A DNA stretch of 13,967 bases from a virus (Duplodnaviria > Heunggongvirae > Uroviricota > Caudoviricetes), in IMG/VR virus record IMGVR_UViG_2703718846_000001; one strand, written 5' to 3'. The notes below the pieces were generated by a model, which saw only the letters and a program-made list of their open reading frames with translations, did no database searches and was not told the DNA's origin. Shown piece after piece: positions 1,491 through 13,967 of the stretch. Within the stretch, counting starts at the first letter, position 1; each line of letters starts with the position of its first letter. Both the position numbers and the translations under genes were made by a program.

Positions 1491-1874
1491 ATGCGTGATA
1501 TTCAGATGGTTCTTGAGCGTTGGGGAGCGTGGGCGGCTAATAATCATGAAGATGTGACCTGGTCGTCCATTGCCGCCGGTTTTAAGGGATTAATTACTTC
1601 AAAAGTAAAATCTCGCCCGCAATGTTGTGACGATGACGCGATGATCATTTGCGGGTGCATGGCCCGTCTGAAAAAGAACAACAGCGATTTGCACGATTTA
1701 TTAGTAGATTATTATGTAGTCGGTATGACATTCATGTCACTGGCAGGTAAGCATTGCTGCTCTGATGGTTATATCGGGAAAAGGTTACAGAAGGCTGAGG
1801 GTATAATTGAAGGGATGTTAATGGCATTAGATATCCGGTTAGAGATGGATATCGTTGTTAATAACTCTAATTAA
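1491..1874 (+). CDS. quuD: Late-gene antiterminator Q (QuuD/phage-82/21 type)
   Basis: 127-aa product [24 protein letters not shown]... with Cys-rich segment ([18 protein letters not shown]) typical of Q-family zinc-binding antiterminators; GGAG 9-12 nt upstream of ATG 1491. Confidence 0.85.
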
Positions 1875-2063: not shown

Positions 2064-3161
2064 TTAGAACTGGTAAACCAGACCTACAGCAACGATGTCA
2101 TCAGTGCTTACACCGAGTGCTTTAGTGAAGTCATTTTTGTCAAGCAGGTTGATTTTGTAATCAACGAAAGTAGACATATTTTTGTTGAAGTAATAGGTTG
2201 CACCTACATCAACATATTTGACTAAGTCCTGATCGCCCCATACTCCAAGATCCTTACCTTTAGATTGCAGGTAAGCAACGGACGGACGCAGACCGAAATC
2301 GAACTGATATTGTGCAACAGCTTCGAAGTTTTGAGCTTTATTAGCAACGAAGTGATCAGCAAATACAGTCATATTCTGGGTTTCAGAATAGGTAGTGGCC
2401 AGGTAAATGTTGTTAGCGTCATATTTCAGACCTGCGGCCCAAACTTCTGCATTTTTACCGGAAGCAAATACTTCAGGAAGAACTTTCCCTGCATTAACTT
2501 GAGTGTCGGTACGATCAGATTTCGCATAAGTTGCACCGATACCGAATCCTTCGTATTCATAGGTAGCAGAGAAACCGAAGCCATCACCGTTACCTTCAGT
2601 GTAGTTATCGAAATCGCTACGATCGTTTTTGCCTTGGTACTGAGCAGCAAAGTTCAGACCATCAACCAGACCAAAGAAGTCGTTGTTACGATAGGTTGCA
2701 ACACCAGTGGTACGACCAGTCATGAACACATCTGTTTGGGTCCAGGTATCGCCACCGAATTCTGGCAGAACGTCAGTCCACGCACCGATGTCGTATGCTA
2801 CACCGTAGTTACGGCCGTAATCGATTGAGCCGTAGTCACCGAATTTCAGGCCTGCAAATGCAAGACGGGTTTTGTCTTTGGAGGAACCTTGAGATTCAGC
2901 GCGGTTGCCTTTGAATTCATATTCCCACTGACCGAAACCAGTCAGCTGATCGTTGATTTGGGTTTCACCTTTGAAGCCAAGACGGGCATAAGTAGTATCA
3001 CCATCATCTGCATCATTAGAGGAGAAGTAGTGCTTAGCATTAACTTTCCCGTACAGATCCAGCTTGTTACTGTCTTTATTATAAATTTCAGCTGCCTGAG
3101 CAGACATCGCCATCAGTACTGATGCAGCTACAGCAGAAATTGCCACTGTTAATTTTTTCAT
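2064..3161 (-). CDS. nmpC: General porin NmpC/Lc (OmpC/OmpF family), intact
   Basis: 365-aa ORF; N-terminal signal peptide [23 protein letters not shown]|AEIYNK; porin-family sequence throughout; C-terminal ...VGLVYQF ending in Phe as in outer-membrane beta-barrels; no IS interruption. Confidence 0.95.
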
Positions 3162-3734
3162 CGTGAGCCCTTTTTTTTGAACTATTATTAAAAAATGATG
3201 TCACTGCGCGATAAATATTCATCTAATCAATGTGATTATTTCAAGATGTAAGTTTTGGTTTCTCGTTTGATTTGTGAAGTAGATCTCTATTTTTATCTGA
3301 ACTTTTTTCTATCGAATCCTATTTATAGCTCTTGGCTGAATAAAAATAAATCTATTAGCCAATTTATATTAACGGCTGTTATTTATAAGCGCTCTATAAT
3401 TTGAAGGTTCAATTTAAATTGGCTAAAAATAACACTGGAAATTATTTGTTGGTTATTTGTTGAGATTTGCTTATGTATTTGTAGTGGTGTTTTCAATACT
3501 CGGTAGCATTCTCGCAAATATCATTTAGTGGTTTACGTACGTAAAAAATTGGTTATGCTGTTAAGAGTGGTTACTTCGTCACACAGCTTAAACCCGCCGT
3601 CGAGCGGGTTTTTCCATTTTTTGAGTCTCGATATTAGCTGATAACCCAATACCTGAGTTATTCACTGACTCCGAGTCTGTTACGTTTCGTAGTATTCCCT
3701 CAATTTACACCCGCTTTGTCTGCGAGGTGGGGTT
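3162..3734. promoter_or_regulatory. AT-rich 573-bp intergenic region holding the nmpC promoter (minus strand) and the lead-in to the lysis cassette
   Basis: No ORF of 60 aa or more on either strand; long A/T runs; tandem repeat TTATTTGTTG x2 at 3443-3462; 10-bp inverted repeat TAGCCAATTT / AAATTGGCTA at 3356-3365 and 3416-3425. Confidence 0.4.
3590..3626 (+). terminator. Candidate rho-independent terminator ~110 nt upstream of the holin start
   Basis: AAACCCGC-CGTCGA-GCGGGTTT (8-bp stem) followed by TTCCATTTTTT. Confidence 0.35.
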
Positions 3735-3950
3735 ATGAAATCCATGGATAAGTTAACAACGGGTGTCGCCTATGGCACCTCAGCAGGTAGTGCCGGGTAC
3801 TGGTTTTTACAGCTGCTAGATAAAGTCACGCCCTCACAGTGGGCGGCAATTGGAGTGCTGGGTAGCCTGGTATTTGGCCTGCTGACGTACCTGACAAACC
3901 TTTATTTCAAGATTAAAGAAGATAAGCGTAAGGCTGCGAGAGGTGAATAA
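3735..3950 (+). CDS. essD: Phage-21-type class II holin (pinholin S21) with dual-start motif
   Basis: 71 aa, [26 protein letters not shown]...: Met1-Lys-Ser-Met4 dual start (antiholin/holin forms), two TM segments; strong SD GAGGTGGGG upstream. Confidence 0.9.
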
Positions 3951-4447
3951 TGTCGCCATCATTACGCAAGGCTGTAGCAGCTGCTATTGGTGGTGGGGCT
4001 GTTGCCATAGCGTCTGTGCTCATCACTGGTCCGAGTGGTGACGATGGTCTGGAAGGTGTCAGCTACATACCATATAAAGATATTGTTGGTGTATGGACTG
4101 TATGTCACGGGCATACAGGAAAAGACATCATGCTCGGTAAAACGTATACCAAAGCAGAATGCAAAGCACTCTTGAATAAAGACCTTGCCACTGTCGCCAG
4201 ACAAATTAACCCGTACATCAAAGTCGATATACCGGAAACAACGCGCGGCGCTCTTTACTCATTCGTTTACAACGTGGGTGCTGGCAATTTCAGAACATCG
4301 ACGCTTCTTCGCAAAATAAACCAGGGCGATATCAAAGGCGCATGTGATCAGCTACGTCGCTGGACATATGCTGGCGGTAAGCCATGGAAAGGTCTCATGA
4401 CTCGTCGTGAGATTGAGCGTGAAATCTGTTTGTGGGGTCAGCAATGA
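3950..4447 (+). CDS. rrrD: SAR endolysin (phage-21 R-type lysozyme with N-terminal signal-anchor-release domain)
   Basis: 165 aa; N-terminal Gly/Ala-rich weakly hydrophobic segment [18 protein letters not shown]; lysozyme core with [26 protein letters not shown] (E-D-T catalytic motif); start overlaps holin stop (TAATG). Confidence 0.9.
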
Positions 4448-4905
4448 ACAGAGTAACCGCGATTATCTCCGCTCTGGTTATCTGCATCATCGTCTGCCTG
4501 TCATGGGCTGTTAATCATTACCGTGATAACGCCATTACCTACAAAGCCCAGCGCGACAAAAATGTCAGAGAACTGAAGCTGGCGAACGCGGCAATTACTG
4601 ACATGCAGATGCGTCAGCGTGATGTTGCTGCGCTCGATGCAAAATACACGAAGGAGTTAGCTGATGCGAAAGCTGAAAATGATGCTCTGCGTGATGATGT
4701 TGCCGCTGGTCGTCGTCGGTTGCACATCAAAGCAGTCTGTCAGTCAGTGCGTGAAGCCACCACCGCCTCCGGCGTGGATAATGCAGCCTCCCCCCGACTG
4801 GCAGACACCGCTGAACGGGATTATTTCACCCTCAGAGAGAGGCTGATCACTATGCAAAAACAACTGGAAGGAACCCAGAAGTATATTAATGAGCAGTGCA
4901 GATAG
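4444..4905 (+). CDS. rzpD: Rz i-spanin (inner-membrane spanin subunit)
   Basis: 153 aa from ATG 4444 ([23 protein letters not shown]...): N-terminal TM anchor then coiled-coil-like periplasmic domain; start overlaps endolysin stop (ATGA). Confidence 0.9.
4664..4846 (+). CDS. rzoD: Rz1 o-spanin lipoprotein, embedded in the +1 frame of Rz
   Basis: 60 aa, [24 protein letters not shown]... with lipobox VVGC and proline-rich mature part ([16 protein letters not shown]); lies entirely inside Rz in another frame, as in lambda Rz/Rz1. Confidence 0.85.
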
Positions 4906-4907
4906 AG

Positions 4908-4929
4908 TTGCCCATATCGATGGGCAACT
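4908..4929. terminator. 22-bp near-perfect palindrome between convergent Rz and bor; candidate bidirectional terminator
   Basis: GTTGCCCATATCGATGGGCAAC (9-bp arms) directly after the Rz stop and before the bor stop; flanking T-richness is modest. Confidence 0.3.
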
Positions 4930-4936
4930 CATGCAA

Positions 4937-5230
4937 TTATTGTGAGCAATACACACGCGCTTCCAGCGGAGTATAAATGCCTAAAGTAATAAAACCGAGC
5001 AATCCATTTACGAATGTTTGCTGGGTTTCTGTTTTAACAACATTTTCTGCGCCGCCACAAATTTTGGCTGCATCGACAGTTTTCTTCTGCCCAATTCCAG
5101 AAACGAAGAAATGATGAGTGATGGTTTCCTTTGGTGCTACTGCTGCCGGTTTGTTTTGAACAGTAAACGTCTGTTGAGCACATCCTGTAATAAGCAGGGC
5201 CAGCGCAGTAGCGAGTAGCATTTTTTTCAT
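4937..5230 (-). CDS. borD: Bor outer-membrane lipoprotein (serum-resistance moron)
   Basis: 97 aa, MKKMLLATALALLITGCAQQ... with lipobox LITGC; matches lambda Bor closely as I recall it. Confidence 0.9.
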   Translation of the reverse strand: MKKMLLATALALLITGCAQQTFTVQNKPAAVAPKETITHHFFVSGIGQKKTVDAAKICGGAENVVKTETQQTFVNGLLGFITLGIYTPLEARVYCSQ

Positions 5231-6929: not shown

Positions 6930-7170
6930 ATGATAATTATTATCATTTTGCGGGTCCTTTCCGGCGATCCGACAGGTTACGGGGCGACGACCTCGCGGGT
7001 TTTCGCTATTTATGAAAATTTTCCGGTTTAAGGCGTTTCCGTTCTTCTTCGTCGTAACTTAATGTTTTTATTTAAAATACCCCCTAAAAAGAAAGGAAAC
7101 GACAGGTGCTGAAAACGAACTTTTGGGCCTTTGTCGTTTCCTTTCTCTGTTTTTGGCCGTGGAATGAACA
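6930..7170 (+). other. Cohesive-end site cos (cosQ region, cosN 6982-6993, cosB with R3, IHF region, R2, R1) upstream of nu1
   Basis: ...CGACAGGTTACG|GGGCGACGACCT|CGCGGGTTTTCGCTATTTATG... is near-identical to the lambda right-end/left-end junction as I recall it; CGTTTCC-type R elements at 7035-7044 (R3), 7094-7100 (R2, inverted) and 7135-7141 (R1); R2/R1 sit in a 15-bp inverted repeat (7090-7104 / 7132-7146). Confidence 0.8.
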
Positions 7171-7690
7171 ATGGAAGTCAACAAAAAGCAGCTGGCTGAC
7201 ATTTTCGGTGCGAGTATCCGTACCATTCAGAACTGGCAGGAACAGGGAATGCCCGTTCTGCGAGGCGGTGGCAAGGGTAATGAGGTGCTTTATGACTCTG
7301 CCGCCGTTATAAAATGGTATGCCGAAAGGGATGCTGAAATTGAGAACGAAAAGCTGCGCCGGGAGGTTGAAGAACTGCGCCAGGCCAGCGAGGCAGATCT
7401 CCAGCCAGGGACTATTGAGTACGAACGCCATCGACTTACGCGTGCGCAGGCCGACGCACAGGAACTGAAGAATGCCAGAGACTCAGCTGAAGTGGTGGAA
7501 ACCGCATTCTGTACTTTCGTGCTGTCGCGGATCGCAGGTGAAATTGCCAGTATTCTCGACGGGATCCCCCTGTCGGTGCAGCGGCGTTTTCCGGAACTGG
7601 AAAACCGACATGTTGATTTCCTGAAACGGGATATCATCAAAGCCATGAACAAAGCAGCCGCGCTGGATGAACTGATACCGGGGTTGCTGA

Positions 7691-7716
<26 letters not shown>
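7171..7716 (+). CDS. nu1: Terminase small subunit Nu1
   Basis: 181 aa, MEVNKKQLADIFGASIRTIQNWQEQGMPVLRGGGKGNEVLYD... (N-terminal winged HTH); lambda Nu1-like over full length; DLP12 equivalent is nohD. Confidence 0.9.
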
Positions 7717-11400
<3,684 letters not shown>

Positions 11401-11417
<17 letters not shown>

Positions 11418-12717
11418 TCTCCCGCATATTGCCAGCATGGCCTTTAATGAGCCGCTGATGCTTGAACCCGCCTATGCGCGGGTTTTCTTTTGTGCGCTTG
11501 CAGGCCAGCTTGGGATCAGCCGCCTGACGGATGCGGTGTCCGGCGACAGCCTGACTGCCCAGGAGGCACTCGCGACGCTGGCATTATCCGGTGATGATGA
11601 CGGACCACGACAGGCCCGCAGTTATCAGGTCATGAACGGCATCGCCGTGCTGCCGGTGTCCGGCACGCTGGTCAGCCGGACGCGGGCGCTGCAGCCGTAC
11701 TCGGGGATGACCGGTTACAACGGCATTATCGCCCGTCTGCAACAGGCTGCCAGCGATCCGATGGTGGACGGCATTCTGCTCGATATGGACACGCCCGGCG
11801 GGATGGTGGCGGGGGCATTTGACTGCGCTGACATCATCGCCCGTGTGCGTGACATAAAACCGGTATGGGCGCTTGCCAACGACATGAACTGCAGTGCAGG
11901 TCAGTTGCTTGCCAGTGCCGCCTCCCGGCGTCTGGTCACGCAGACCGCCCGGACAGGCTCCATCGGCGTCATGATGGCTCACAGTAATTACGGTGCTGCG
12001 CTGGAGAAACAGGGTGTGGAAATCACGCTGATTTACAGCGGCAGCCATAAGGTGGATGGCAACCCCTACAGCCATCTTCCGGATGACGTCCGGGAGACAC
12101 TGCAGTCCCGGATGGACGCAACCCGCCAGATGTTTGCGCAGAAGGTGTCGGCATATACCGGCCTGTCCGTGCAGGCTGTGCTGGATACCGAGGCTGCAGT
12201 GTACAGCGGTCAGGAGGCCATTGATGCCGGACTGGCTGATGAACTTGTTAACAGCACCGATGCGATCACCGTCATGCGTGATGCACTGGATGCACGTAAA
12301 TCCCGTCTCTCAGGAGGGCGAATGACCAAAGAGACTCAATCAACAACTGTTTCAGCCACTGCTTCGCAGGCTGACGTTACTGACGTGGTGCCAGCGACGG
12401 AGGGCGAGAACGCCAGCGCGGCGCAGCCGGACGTGAACGCGCAGATCACCGCAGCGGTTGCGGCAGAAAACAGCCGCATTATGGGGATCCTCAACTGTGA
12501 GGAGGCTCACGGACGCGAAGAACAGGCACGCGTGCTGGCAGAAACCCCCGGTATGACCGTGAAAACGGCCCGCCGCATTCTGGCCGCAGCACCACAGAGT
12601 GCACAGGCGCGCAGTGACACTGCGCTGGATCGTCTGATGCAGGGGGCACCGGCACCGCTGGCTGCAGGTAACCCGGCATCTGATGCCGTTAACGATTTGC
12701 TGAACACACCAGTGTAA
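11401..12717 (+). CDS. C: Head maturation protease / scaffold C
   Basis: GTG at 11401 gives MTAELRNLPHIASMAFNEPLMLEPAYARVFF..., the lambda gpC N-terminus; overlaps the B 3' end by 17 nt. The track ORF from 11263 is an in-frame upstream extension. Start codon uncertain by one codon. Confidence 0.85.
12112..12717 (+). CDS. nu3: Scaffolding protein Nu3, in-frame internal start within C
   Basis: ATG at 12112 in the C frame yields a 201-aa product (MDATRQMFAQKVSAYTG...), the size and position of lambda Nu3. Confidence 0.65.
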   Translation: MDATRQMFAQKVSAYTGLSVQAVLDTEAAVYSGQEAIDAGLADELVNSTDAITVMRDALDARKSRLSGGRMTKETQSTTVSATASQADVTDVVPATEGENASAAQPDVNAQITAAVAAENSRIMGILNCEEAHGREEQARVLAETPGMTVKTARRILAAAPQSAQARSDTALDRLMQGAPAPLAAGNPASDAVNDLLNTPV

Positions 12718-12726
12718 GGGATGTTT

Positions 12727-13059
12727 ATGACGAGCAAAGAAACCTTTACCCATTACCAGCCGCAGGGCAACAGTGACCCGGCTTATACCGCAACCGCGCC
12801 CGGCGGATTGAGTGCGAAAGCGCCTGCAATGACCCCGCTGATGCTGGACACCTCCAGCCGTAAGCTGGTTGCGTGGGATGGCACCACCGACGGTGCTGCC
12901 GTTGGCATTCTTGCGGTTGCTGCTGACCAGACCAGCACCACGCTGACGTTCTACAAGTCCGGCACGTTCCGTTATGAGGATGTGCTCTGGCCGGAGGCTG
13001 CCAGCGACGAGACGAAAAAACGGACCGCGTTTGCCGGAACGGCAATCAGCATCGTTTAA
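12727..13059 (+). CDS. D: Head decoration protein D
   Basis: 110 aa from ATG 12727 ([27 protein letters not shown]...), lambda gpD-like; the track ORF starts two codons earlier at 12721. Confidence 0.9.
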
Positions 13060-13078
13060 CCTGACCCTTCATCACTAA

Positions 13079-13099
13079 AGGCCGCCTGTGCGGCTTTTT
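13079..13099 (+). terminator. Small GC hairpin plus T7 tract in the D-E intercistronic region (attenuator/terminator-like)
   Basis: GCCGC-CTGT-GCGGC followed by TTTTTTT (13093-13099). Confidence 0.3.
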
Positions 13100-13114
13100 T
13101 TACGGGATTTTTTT

Positions 13115-13372
13115 ATGTCGATGTACACAACCGCCCAACTGCTGGCGGCAAATGAGCAGAAATTTAAGTTTGATCCGCTGTTTCTGCGTCTCTTTTTCCG
13201 TGAGAGCTATCCCTTCACCACGGAGAAAGTCTATCTCTCACAAATTCCGGGACTGGTATTGGTGCTCATACGCACTCCGTTGCGATTGGCTCACATGGAC
13301 ACACCATCACCGTTAACGCTGCTGGTAACGCGGAAAACACCGTCAAAAACATCGCATTTAACTATATTGTGA
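13115..13372 (+). pseudogene. E: Truncated major capsid gene E (first ~48 codons only, then out-of-frame readthrough into stf DNA)
   Basis: ATG 13115 gives [48 protein letters not shown] (lambda gpE N-terminus); after ~13258 the translation becomes [37 protein letters not shown] and stops at 13372. Full-length gpE is ~341 aa. Confidence 0.8.
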
Positions 13373-13383
13373 GGCTTGCATAA
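13259..13383 (+). pseudogene. stf: 3'-terminal remnant of side tail fibre gene stf (~40 codons)
   Basis: In the frame ending at TAA 13381-13383 the sequence reads [40 protein letters not shown], the His-rich C-terminus of lambda Stf as I recall it, with the stop overlapping the tfa start (TAATG). Confidence 0.65.
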
Positions 13384-13967
13384 TGGCATTCAGAATGAGT
13401 GAACAAGCACGGACCATAAAAATTTATAATCTGCTGGCCGGAACTAATGAATTTATTGGTGAAGGTGATGCATATATTCCGCCTCATACAGGTCTGCCAG
13501 CAAACAGTACCGATATTGCACCACCAGATATTCCTGCTGGCTTTGTGGCTGTTTTCAACAGTGATGAGGCATCGTGGCATCTCGTTGAAGACCATCGGGG
13601 TAAAACGGTTTATGACGTAGCGTCAGGGGACGAGTTATTTATTTCTGAACTCGGTCCGTTACCGGAAAATGTTACCTGGTTATCGCCGGAAGGGGAGTTT
13701 CAGAAGTGGAACGGCACAGCTTGGGTGAAAGATGCAGAAGCAGAAAAACTGTTCCGGATCCGAGAGGCGGAAGAAATAAAAAACAGCCTGATGCAGGTAG
13801 CCAGTGAGCATATTGCGCCACTTCAGGATGCTGTAGATCTGGAAATCGCAACGGAGGAAGAAACCTCATTGCTGGAAGCCTGGAAAAAGTATCGGGTGTT
13901 GCTGAACCGTGTTGATACATCAACTGCACCTGATATTGAGTGGCCTACGAACCCTGTCAGGGAGTAA
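13383..13967 (+). CDS. tfa: Tail fibre assembly protein Tfa
   Basis: 194 aa, [54 protein letters not shown]..., lambda Tfa-like over full length; stop at the last base of the window. Confidence 0.9.

Follow-up and report, generated by a model that had tools for sequence, protein, structure and literature searches.

To our knowledge, the lysis module of prophage DLP12 is routinely annotated in Escherichia coli genomes, and in the lambda qsr' hybrids of the 1970s the Q, S and R genes of DLP12 were reportedly able to replace those of lambda. In strain K-12 the module is a transcribed operon, and a plasmid copy of it lyses the cells, which release nucleic acids (Pasqua et al. 2021, PMC7918800). 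The same study found that deletion of the operon raises vesicle output 4- to 5-fold and that its transcription drops at low pH, at high osmolarity and at low temperature. Passages of that paper also cite a role of the module in biofilm (Toba 2011), its control by the DLP12 Q protein (Rueggeberg 2013), by RpoE (Rueggeberg 2015) and by Hha, and its loss in Shigella (Leuzzi 2017), and Hha toxicity has been linked to the DLP12 lysis genes (Garcia-Contreras et al. 2008). Low-level expression of the operon in K-12 is reported to affect peptidoglycan turnover, biofilm and vesicles, and its overexpression to lyse the cell. In phage 434B, about 5.5 kb of K-12 DLP12 substitutes for the phage's own Q, late promoter and lysis region, and the phage is reported to form plaques (Feiss et al. 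2022, PMC9119081); the K-12 module is therefore able to drive phage lysis. The mechanism by which pinholins and signal-anchor-release (SAR) endolysins act has been summarized in a paper that cites the structure of the DLP12 endolysin, states the E-X8-D-X5-T lysozyme motif and describes energy-poison triggering assays of S21 (PMC9239132).

Here we compare with these systems a stretch of 13,967 nucleotides, hereafter the window, whose sequence matches E. coli chromosomes. Its gene order, ybcN-ninE-ybcO-rusA-ylcG-quuD-nmpC-essD-rrrD-rzpD/rzoD-bor-ybcV-ybcW-ylcI-nohD, matches gene for gene that of annotated K-12 DLP12 and of strain MFDS1019527, and also that of complete prophages at argU. Relative to the DLP12 (qsr') module of K-12, EssD, QuuD, the promoter, the terminator and the leader are identical, and the prophage is defective in both strains; RrrD differs by 5 residues, Rz by 7 (including the first, encoded by ATG here and by GTG in K-12) and Rz1 by 1. 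Judged by these comparisons, the cassette is essentially the allele set already tested in E. coli K-12, and we consider it very probable that the locus represents the late lysis operon of an E. coli lambdoid prophage of the DLP12 family, here in a copy which has lost capsid and tail genes over about 16 kb. In this respect the finding is already known, since lysis capacity, control by Q, RpoE and Hha, effects on biofilm and vesicles and the crystal structure of the endolysin have all been published for K-12. An earlier note on this DNA had proposed that an intact lysis module in a prophage without structural genes may still lyse its host, and both this hypothesis and the three checks proposed with it have already been carried out for K-12 (PMC7918800, PMC9119081).

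The four-gene lysis cassette

Four lysis genes, intact and tightly packed, occupy positions 3735-4905 on the plus strand, as read from the list of open reading frames and the raw sequence:

essD, 3735-3950, plus strand: class II holin (pinholin), 71 aa
rrrD, 3950-4447, plus strand: SAR endolysin, GH24 lysozyme, 165 aa
rzpD, 4444-4905, plus strand: i-spanin Rz, 153 aa counted from the ATG
rzoD, 4664-4846, plus strand: o-spanin Rz1 lipoprotein, 60 aa, inside rzpD in the +1 frame

The gene boundaries overlap in the manner that had been described for them, and this can be read directly from the sequence: in TAATG at 3948-3952 the essD stop TAA (3948-3950) and the rrrD ATG (3950-3952) have one base in common, and in ATGA at 4444-4447 the rzpD ATG (4444-4446) overlaps the rrrD stop TGA (4445-4447). 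The program-made list of reading frames starts rzpD at the GTG at 4432, and the ATG at 4444 was adopted here. Comparison with K-12, phage 21 and 434B revealed no internal stop or frameshift in essD, rrrD, rzpD or rzoD, and all four proteins are full length in the same comparison. The Pfam gathering scores of the four families concerned lie between 22 and 28 bits, and the matches are far higher: 121 bits against a cut-off of 26 for EssD (Phage_holin_2_1, PF04971), 153.8 against 22.3 for RrrD (Phage_lysozyme, PF00959), 181.9 against 25.4 for RzpD (Phage_lysis/Rz, PF03245) and 72.2 against 27.9 for RzoD (Rz1, PF06085). The four-gene cassette is real, far beyond chance. NCBIfam held no HMM for EssD, Rz, Rz1 or QuuD and gave for RrrD sub-threshold matches to unrelated equivalogs, and an Rfam scan gave no match within or near the lysis cassette. 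The cassette of phage 21 (OL657228) has the same four-gene architecture, the same MKSM dual start and the same gene overlaps as the window.

EssD is identical to K-12 EssD at all 71 residues and to phage 21 S at 61 of the 71, the two genes sharing 77% of their nucleotides. Its N-terminus reads MKSMDK (Met1-Lys2-Ser3-Met4), with a predicted start at 3735 for the antiholin S71 and at 3744 for the holin S68, and the MKSM dual start is likewise annotated in phage 21 and 434B. Along the protein the sole Kyte-Doolittle peak above 0.8 covers residues 36-54 (TMD2). The TMD1 segment, at about residues 8-27, is rich in Gly, Ala, Ser and Thr and weakly hydrophobic, with values below 0.8, and the C-terminal tail is basic (6 K/R, 3 D/E). 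By its family, its predicted starts and its TMD pattern, EssD is a pinholin of the phage 21 type.

The best PDB matches of RrrD, over residues 1-165, are 4ZPU (RrrD, 3.6e-109) and 3HDE/3HDF (R21, 1.4e-108), and 160 of its 165 residues (97%) are identical to K-12 RrrD and likewise to phage 21 R. The differences from K-12, given with the window residue first, are S2P, V18I, D31N, P145Q and I159V, which leave the catalytic residues unaffected. The E-X8-D-X5-T triad is present as E35, D44 and T50; across an alignment of 116 homologues (identity 77% or higher), D44 and T50 never vary and E35 occurs in 114 sequences. Residues 8-26 consist to 63% of Gly, Ala, Ser and Thr, a composition typical of a SAR domain, and over residues 1-26 the sole differences from R21 are S2P and V18I. 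On this resemblance, RrrD is predicted to be an R21-type SAR endolysin.

Residue 145 deserves a separate comment. Proline at this position (Q145P) is lineage-specific, and phage 21, K-12, 434B, MFDS1019527 and PhiR30_1 all have glutamine. The column is variable in the 116 aligned homologues (Q 84, E 18, K 7, V 4, P 2, T 1), one of the two prolines being the window's own allele, and the residue adjoins the invariant W146, G148 and L149. An AlphaFold2 model, which was built from a 29-sequence alignment, is of low confidence (mean pLDDT 62) and was used only for the placement of this residue, puts it in a non-helical stretch between two helices. Q145P is probably tolerated, and it is the only point at which the description of the cassette as intact could fail. 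Inactivating mutations in essD or rrrD, which the earlier note had named as a possible refutation, were sought by comparing alleles: there is no stop or frameshift, and the catalytic residues are kept.

RzpD has an N-terminal TMD (residues 4-23) and cysteines at positions 99 and 152, and 149 of its 153 residues are identical to phage 21 Rz. RzoD, identical to phage 21 Rz1 at all 60 residues, has the lipobox VVVGC with Cys20, a further cysteine at position 29 and 10 prolines among its 41 mature residues. Its start lies 220 nt past that of rzpD (1 modulo 3), which places it in the +1 frame, and the whole of rzoD (4664-4846) falls within 4444-4905. By these features, RzpD and RzoD are a putative two-component embedded spanin of the lambda/21 type. 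Reading frames, Pfam matches, motifs and reference alignments thus agree with the claim that the dual-start MKSM pinholin, the SAR endolysin and the nested Rz/Rz1 pair are intact.

Q, the porin gene and the late control region

The genes and signals that would control the cassette lie upstream of it:

quuD, 1491..1874, plus strand: late-gene antiterminator Q, 127 aa (Pfam Phage_antitermQ, 179 bits)
nmpC/lc porin gene, 2064..3161, minus strand: 365 aa, an intact moron between Q and the late promoter (Pfam Porin_1, 522 bits)
putative late promoter pR' (essDp), 3532..3559, plus strand: inferred -35 TTTACG at 3532-3537 and -10 TATGCT at 3554-3559
intrinsic terminator tR', 3590..3620, plus strand: 8-bp stem (3590-3611) and a T run, from a terminator scan

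QuuD has 100% amino acid identity with K-12 QuuD, 78% with the Q protein of VT2-Sakai and 29% with Q21. Around the 3' end of the porin gene, positions 1837-2070 are 97% identical to lc of phage PA-2, and whereas the K-12 copy of nmpC is interrupted by IS5, that of the window is free of it.

A search with the nmpC-essD spacer placed positions 3531-3613 in homology with the segment right after Q in Stx phages, where the depositors have annotated a late promoter, a Q-utilisation site and a terminator. In 933W, VT2-Sakai and phi24B the -35 and -10 hexamers, the TAAGAGTGGTTAC block and the terminator stem align with the window, and the two hexamers correspond one-to-one to those of the element that the VT2-Sakai and phi24B records label 'putative late promoter'. 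The position of pR' is taken from this homology; a sigma-70 consensus scan of the nmpC-essD interval flagged no promoter. Conserved with the Stx phages, the TAAGAGTGGTTAC block stands directly downstream of the -10 and differs from the 8-bp site that is annotated as qut in the Stx-phage records. The tR' hairpin is retained in the centroid fold and is conserved with the annotated Stx-phage terminator. Over 3515-3734, which comprises promoter, terminator and leader, the window is identical to K-12 at every base. Situated between the late promoter and essD, tR' is the presumed target of Q antitermination.

The arrangement of these elements differs from that of the named phages. The Stx-phage promoter adjoins Q, and tRNAs, stx and a lysis cassette of another kind are transcribed from it, whereas in the window the porin gene stands between Q and the promoter, and the promoter drives a cassette of the phage 21 type. 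The putative late promoter is found about 170 bp upstream of essD, beyond the oppositely oriented nmpC and away from Q. We considered whether transcription from a promoter adjacent to the Q gene might instead be carried by Q across the 1.8 kb of antisense nmpC, and rejected this, as the homologous promoter-terminator unit lies after nmpC. Phage 21 has a Q of unrelated specificity (29% identical to QuuD) and its own pR', QBE and terminator directly after Q; two tRNA genes precede S, and the porin gene is absent.

The same mosaic of the late region, Q-porin(lc/ompD)-S-R-Rz, occurs in PA-2, PhiR30_1, PhiR26_1, ev243 and others. Unlike the window, live phages of the PA-2/PhiR30_1 type have full sets of head and tail genes and form plaques. 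PhiR30_1 is 99.7% identical in nucleotides to window positions 3500-4960; its Q and S proteins are identical to those of the window, and its R protein differs only at residue 145, which is glutamine. In PhiR30_1, a 1-nt frameshift fuses Rz to the Rz1 frame.

On the basis of these alignments, the module is a mosaic that combines a lysis cassette of the phage 21 type with a porin moron and a putative switch of the 933W type. The description of it as a phage-21-type, Q-dependent module holds for the lysis genes; the regulator and the late promoter belong to the 933W type of Stx phages, with a QuuD that shares 78% of its residues with VT2-Sakai Q and 29% with Q21. By inference from this relationship, transactivation by a helper phage would need a 933W-type Q, and the Q proteins of lambda and phage 21 would not be expected to serve.

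The way in which the operon would work can be outlined from the described systems. RNA polymerase would start at the late promoter at about 3532-3559 and would normally halt at the terminator at 3590-3620, so that in a quiescent lysogen the operon would be largely off. QuuD, once made, would modify the polymerase and permit readthrough into essD-rrrD-rzpD/rzoD. EssD would be made both as S71, the antiholin, and as S68, the pinholin, and S68 would build up in the inner membrane until it triggers, with nanometre-scale holes and the collapse of the membrane potential as the expected result. RrrD would previously have been exported by Sec, and its N-terminal SAR domain, which is weakly hydrophobic, would hold it in the membrane in an inactive state; depolarisation would release the enzyme, which would then refold and cleave the peptidoglycan. 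The Rz/Rz1 complex, which would span the periplasm, might then disrupt the outer membrane. The cassette is predicted to be active in the window's own strain as well.

State of the prophage and fate of the block in other E. coli

The prophage is cut inside the major capsid gene, and the remnant of this gene is as follows:

truncated major capsid gene E, 13117..13258, plus strand: first 48 codons, fused to the last 129 nt of stf

A relative that still has E, L009, is 100% identical to positions 13000-13258, with a match that runs to nt 144 of E, and from 13255 to 13967 the window is 100% identical to another, L011, with the 3' end of stf (the last 129 nt) followed by tfa. The junction between the two, at 13255-13258, is a clean 4-bp microhomology, GGTA. 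Complete prophages carry E through stf at this place, and in comparison with them about 16 kb are missing from the window: E from codon 49, FI, FII, Z, U, V, G, T, H, M, L, K, I, J, lom and most of stf. The 40-nt junction of E' and 'stf had 0 matches in genome contigs and is absent from the complete E. coli genomes in the collection; the nearest junction is that of the NWU strains, in which E is broken at about the same point and a longer tail-fibre fragment is kept.

Nu1, A (641 aa), W, B (533 aa), C and D are intact in the window and are 99.9-100% identical to those of L009. The statement that the structural genes have been deleted therefore applies from codon 49 of E to near the end of stf, and does not apply to Nu1, A, W, B, C and D, which are intact reading frames. 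K-12 DLP12 has lost a different segment, from about codon 103 of A to the middle of tfa, whereas in the window the break falls in E and A, W, B, C and D are still present. Lacking tail genes and a complete major capsid gene, the element could not form virions alone, and the earlier description of it as a prophage unable to build virions is upheld by the cut after codon 48 of E and the loss of FI to J and most of stf. Within the window, the prophage is defective and, by its gene order and sequence, is assigned to the DLP12 family.

The window reaches neither end of the prophage and stops short of the immunity and early region. Three relatives with a 100% identical cassette (L008, L010 and L012) sit between fimZ-type and ompT/envY genes, and argU-intD is seen at another locus, H3. 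Two of the three, L010 and L012, are without cI, O and P.

The exact RrrD protein was found on 58 E. coli contigs, with several of the elements lying between fimZ and ompT/envY. In eight other E. coli assemblies the block Q-nmpC-S-R-Rz-Rz1-bor is 100% identical in nucleotides to that of the window, in a sample that was found through the exact RrrD sequence and is thereby biased towards retention. One of the eight, L009, has kept A to E, and the retrieved locus ends just as FI begins; in the others the breaks fall in Nu1, in B or at either of two sites in A. Six distinct morphogenesis deletions that spare the block are counted once K-12 and the window are added. Independent sampling of complete E. 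coli genomes indicated that the arrangement nmpC-essD-rrrD-rzpD-bor/iss is common. In the same species, essD is joined directly to gpJ in H65, H209 and H210, some lineages have a lysozyme or a spanin of another type instead, and the cassette is absent from the L002 remnant.

Between the essD allele of the window and that of K-12 there are 5 synonymous differences and 0 nonsynonymous ones, and the dN/dS of rrrD is 0.056. These diverged alleles are under purifying selection, a signal that is silent on the defective state because the alleles also circulate in live phages. The eight loci with an identical cassette were considered as evidence of selection and rejected, as they had been found through RrrD and show zero divergence. 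Since the sample came by way of RrrD and the sequences have not diverged, selection and recency are inseparable here.

Persistence of the lysis genes and its meaning

There is a substantial possibility, if one that falls somewhat short of an even chance, that the cassette is a recent neutral remnant, intact only because the deletion of the structural genes is very young; it would then have no host function and would be expected to decay. The identity of the block in eight assemblies, one of which (L009) still has A to E, is what would be expected of recent loss, as is the clean 4-bp microhomology at the junction. The low dN/dS could be explained by selection in live phages such as PhiR30_1, and the cassette is broken elsewhere (by the essD-gpJ fusion in H65, H209 and H210, and by its absence in L002). 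However, the K-12 operon is intact in a much more decayed DLP12, and its deletion there alters vesicles (PMC7918800). That six different morphogenesis deletions all spare the block also argues against mere recency, in a sample biased to retention. The same six deletions, taken as independent events in this lineage, speak for a domesticated envelope module that the host would retain not for lysis but for sub-lytic peptidoglycan turnover, biofilm and vesicle control. We hold this reading tentatively, as possible but more doubtful than probable. The vesicle phenotype of the K-12 deletion (a 4- to 5-fold increase) and the response of expression to pH, osmolarity and temperature are consistent with it (PMC7918800), as are the papers on biofilm and on regulation by RpoE and Q that passages of the same article cite. 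Against domestication, the loci compared are a biased sample, with sequences so alike that selection in the defective state would not be visible in them; moreover, a noticeable minority of E. coli genomes have lost the cassette or carry a replacement, and in Shigella it is lost, according to work cited in a passage of PMC7918800.

It is unlikely that the cassette is silent or crippled, that is, that it looks intact and could not lyse because of RrrD Q145P or of lost Q expression. Pro145 is indeed rare and lies beside the invariant W146, G148 and L149, the early region of the window's copy lies outside the window, and L010 and L012, with an identical cassette, are without the immunity and replication region. 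On the other hand, column 145 varies in close homologues (Q, E, K, V, T, P), and the residue is placed in a non-helical stretch, in a model of low confidence, and is far from the triad in sequence. The allele is present on 58 contigs, one of which (L009) also has A to E, and the promoter, the terminator and Q are identical to the functional K-12 versions. A more far-reaching proposal, that wild E. coli actively keep the block Q-nmpC-pR'-essD-rrrD-rzpD/rzoD-bor amid repeated morphogenesis deletions, with Q145P as an adaptive attenuation of RrrD to a housekeeping muramidase, appears to us very unlikely.

To conclude, under our preferred reading as the late lysis operon of a DLP12-family prophage, the window adds a natural variant that has decayed differently from K-12, with the porin gene and six head genes intact and the break in E. 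Together with the near-identical copies that carry different deletions, it may offer material to test whether the lysis genes of such prophages are retained by selection or by chance.

Deletions of the morphogenesis genes

Six distinct deletions of the morphogenesis genes were found, in the window, in K-12 (L003) and in the E. coli assemblies L007, L008, L010 and L011/L012, and Nu1, B and E each hold one break site, while A holds three at distinct positions. Of these deletions, five sit on a Q-to-bor block (Q-nmpC-essD-rrrD-rzpD/rzoD-bor) with 100% nucleotide identity, in a sample that is biased because most loci were retrieved via the exact sequence of RrrD, the SAR endolysin of the cassette; in contrast, the K-12 copy has 93-99.7% identity across the Q-to-bor genes. 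The early regions are likewise deleted to varying extent among these loci. With complete relatives as reference, the window lacks about 16 kb from within the major capsid gene E to near the end of the side tail-fibre gene stf, and codon 48 of E is fused to the final 129 nt of stf:

13255-13258: deletion junction, with the 4-bp microhomology GGTA

Variation of the lysis cassette

In three E. coli chromosomes (H65, H209 and H210), essD is fused straight to gpJ, with loss of rrrD and of the spanins, and one remnant at the DLP12 site, in strain NWU_3, begins in the portal gene and adjoins RHS/T6SS genes, without the lysis cassette. Retention of the cassette is therefore not universal. The plaque-forming phage PhiR30_1, whose cassette is near-identical, carries a 1-nt frameshift at about 17140-17255 of its sequence, which fuses the reading frame of Rz to that of Rz1 and leaves Rz1 truncated; the frameshift is either an error of sequencing or a spanin defect that occurs naturally.

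The porin gene and candidate RNA signals

The prophage porin gene is broken by IS5 in K-12, whereas it is intact in the window, where it is placed as a moron with Q on one side and the late promoter on the other. The convergent genes rzpD and bor are separated by a stretch with an inverted repeat:

2064-3161, minus strand: nmpC/lc, porin gene, 365 aa, intact
1925-1908, minus strand: terminator-like hairpin of nmpC/lc
4907-4932: perfect 11-bp inverted repeat, GAGTTGCCCAT ATCG ATGGGCAACTC

This repeat is probably a bidirectional terminator, which the terminator scan missed because it has no T run. Within the tail-fibre assembly gene tfa, a match to the Rfam candidate small RNA family IS009 was found (227.8 bits, 13726-13924, plus strand).

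Putative packaging site and remaining packaging and head genes

Upstream of the deletion junction, a cosN-like site is followed by a series of packaging and head genes:

6982-6993: cosN-like site GGGCGACGACCT, one mismatch vs lambda
7171-13059: Nu1, A, W, B, C and D, all intact

The element retains, in principle, a packaging site and the terminase, portal, protease/scaffold and decoration genes. With capsid and tails from a helper phage, packaging of the element might be possible.
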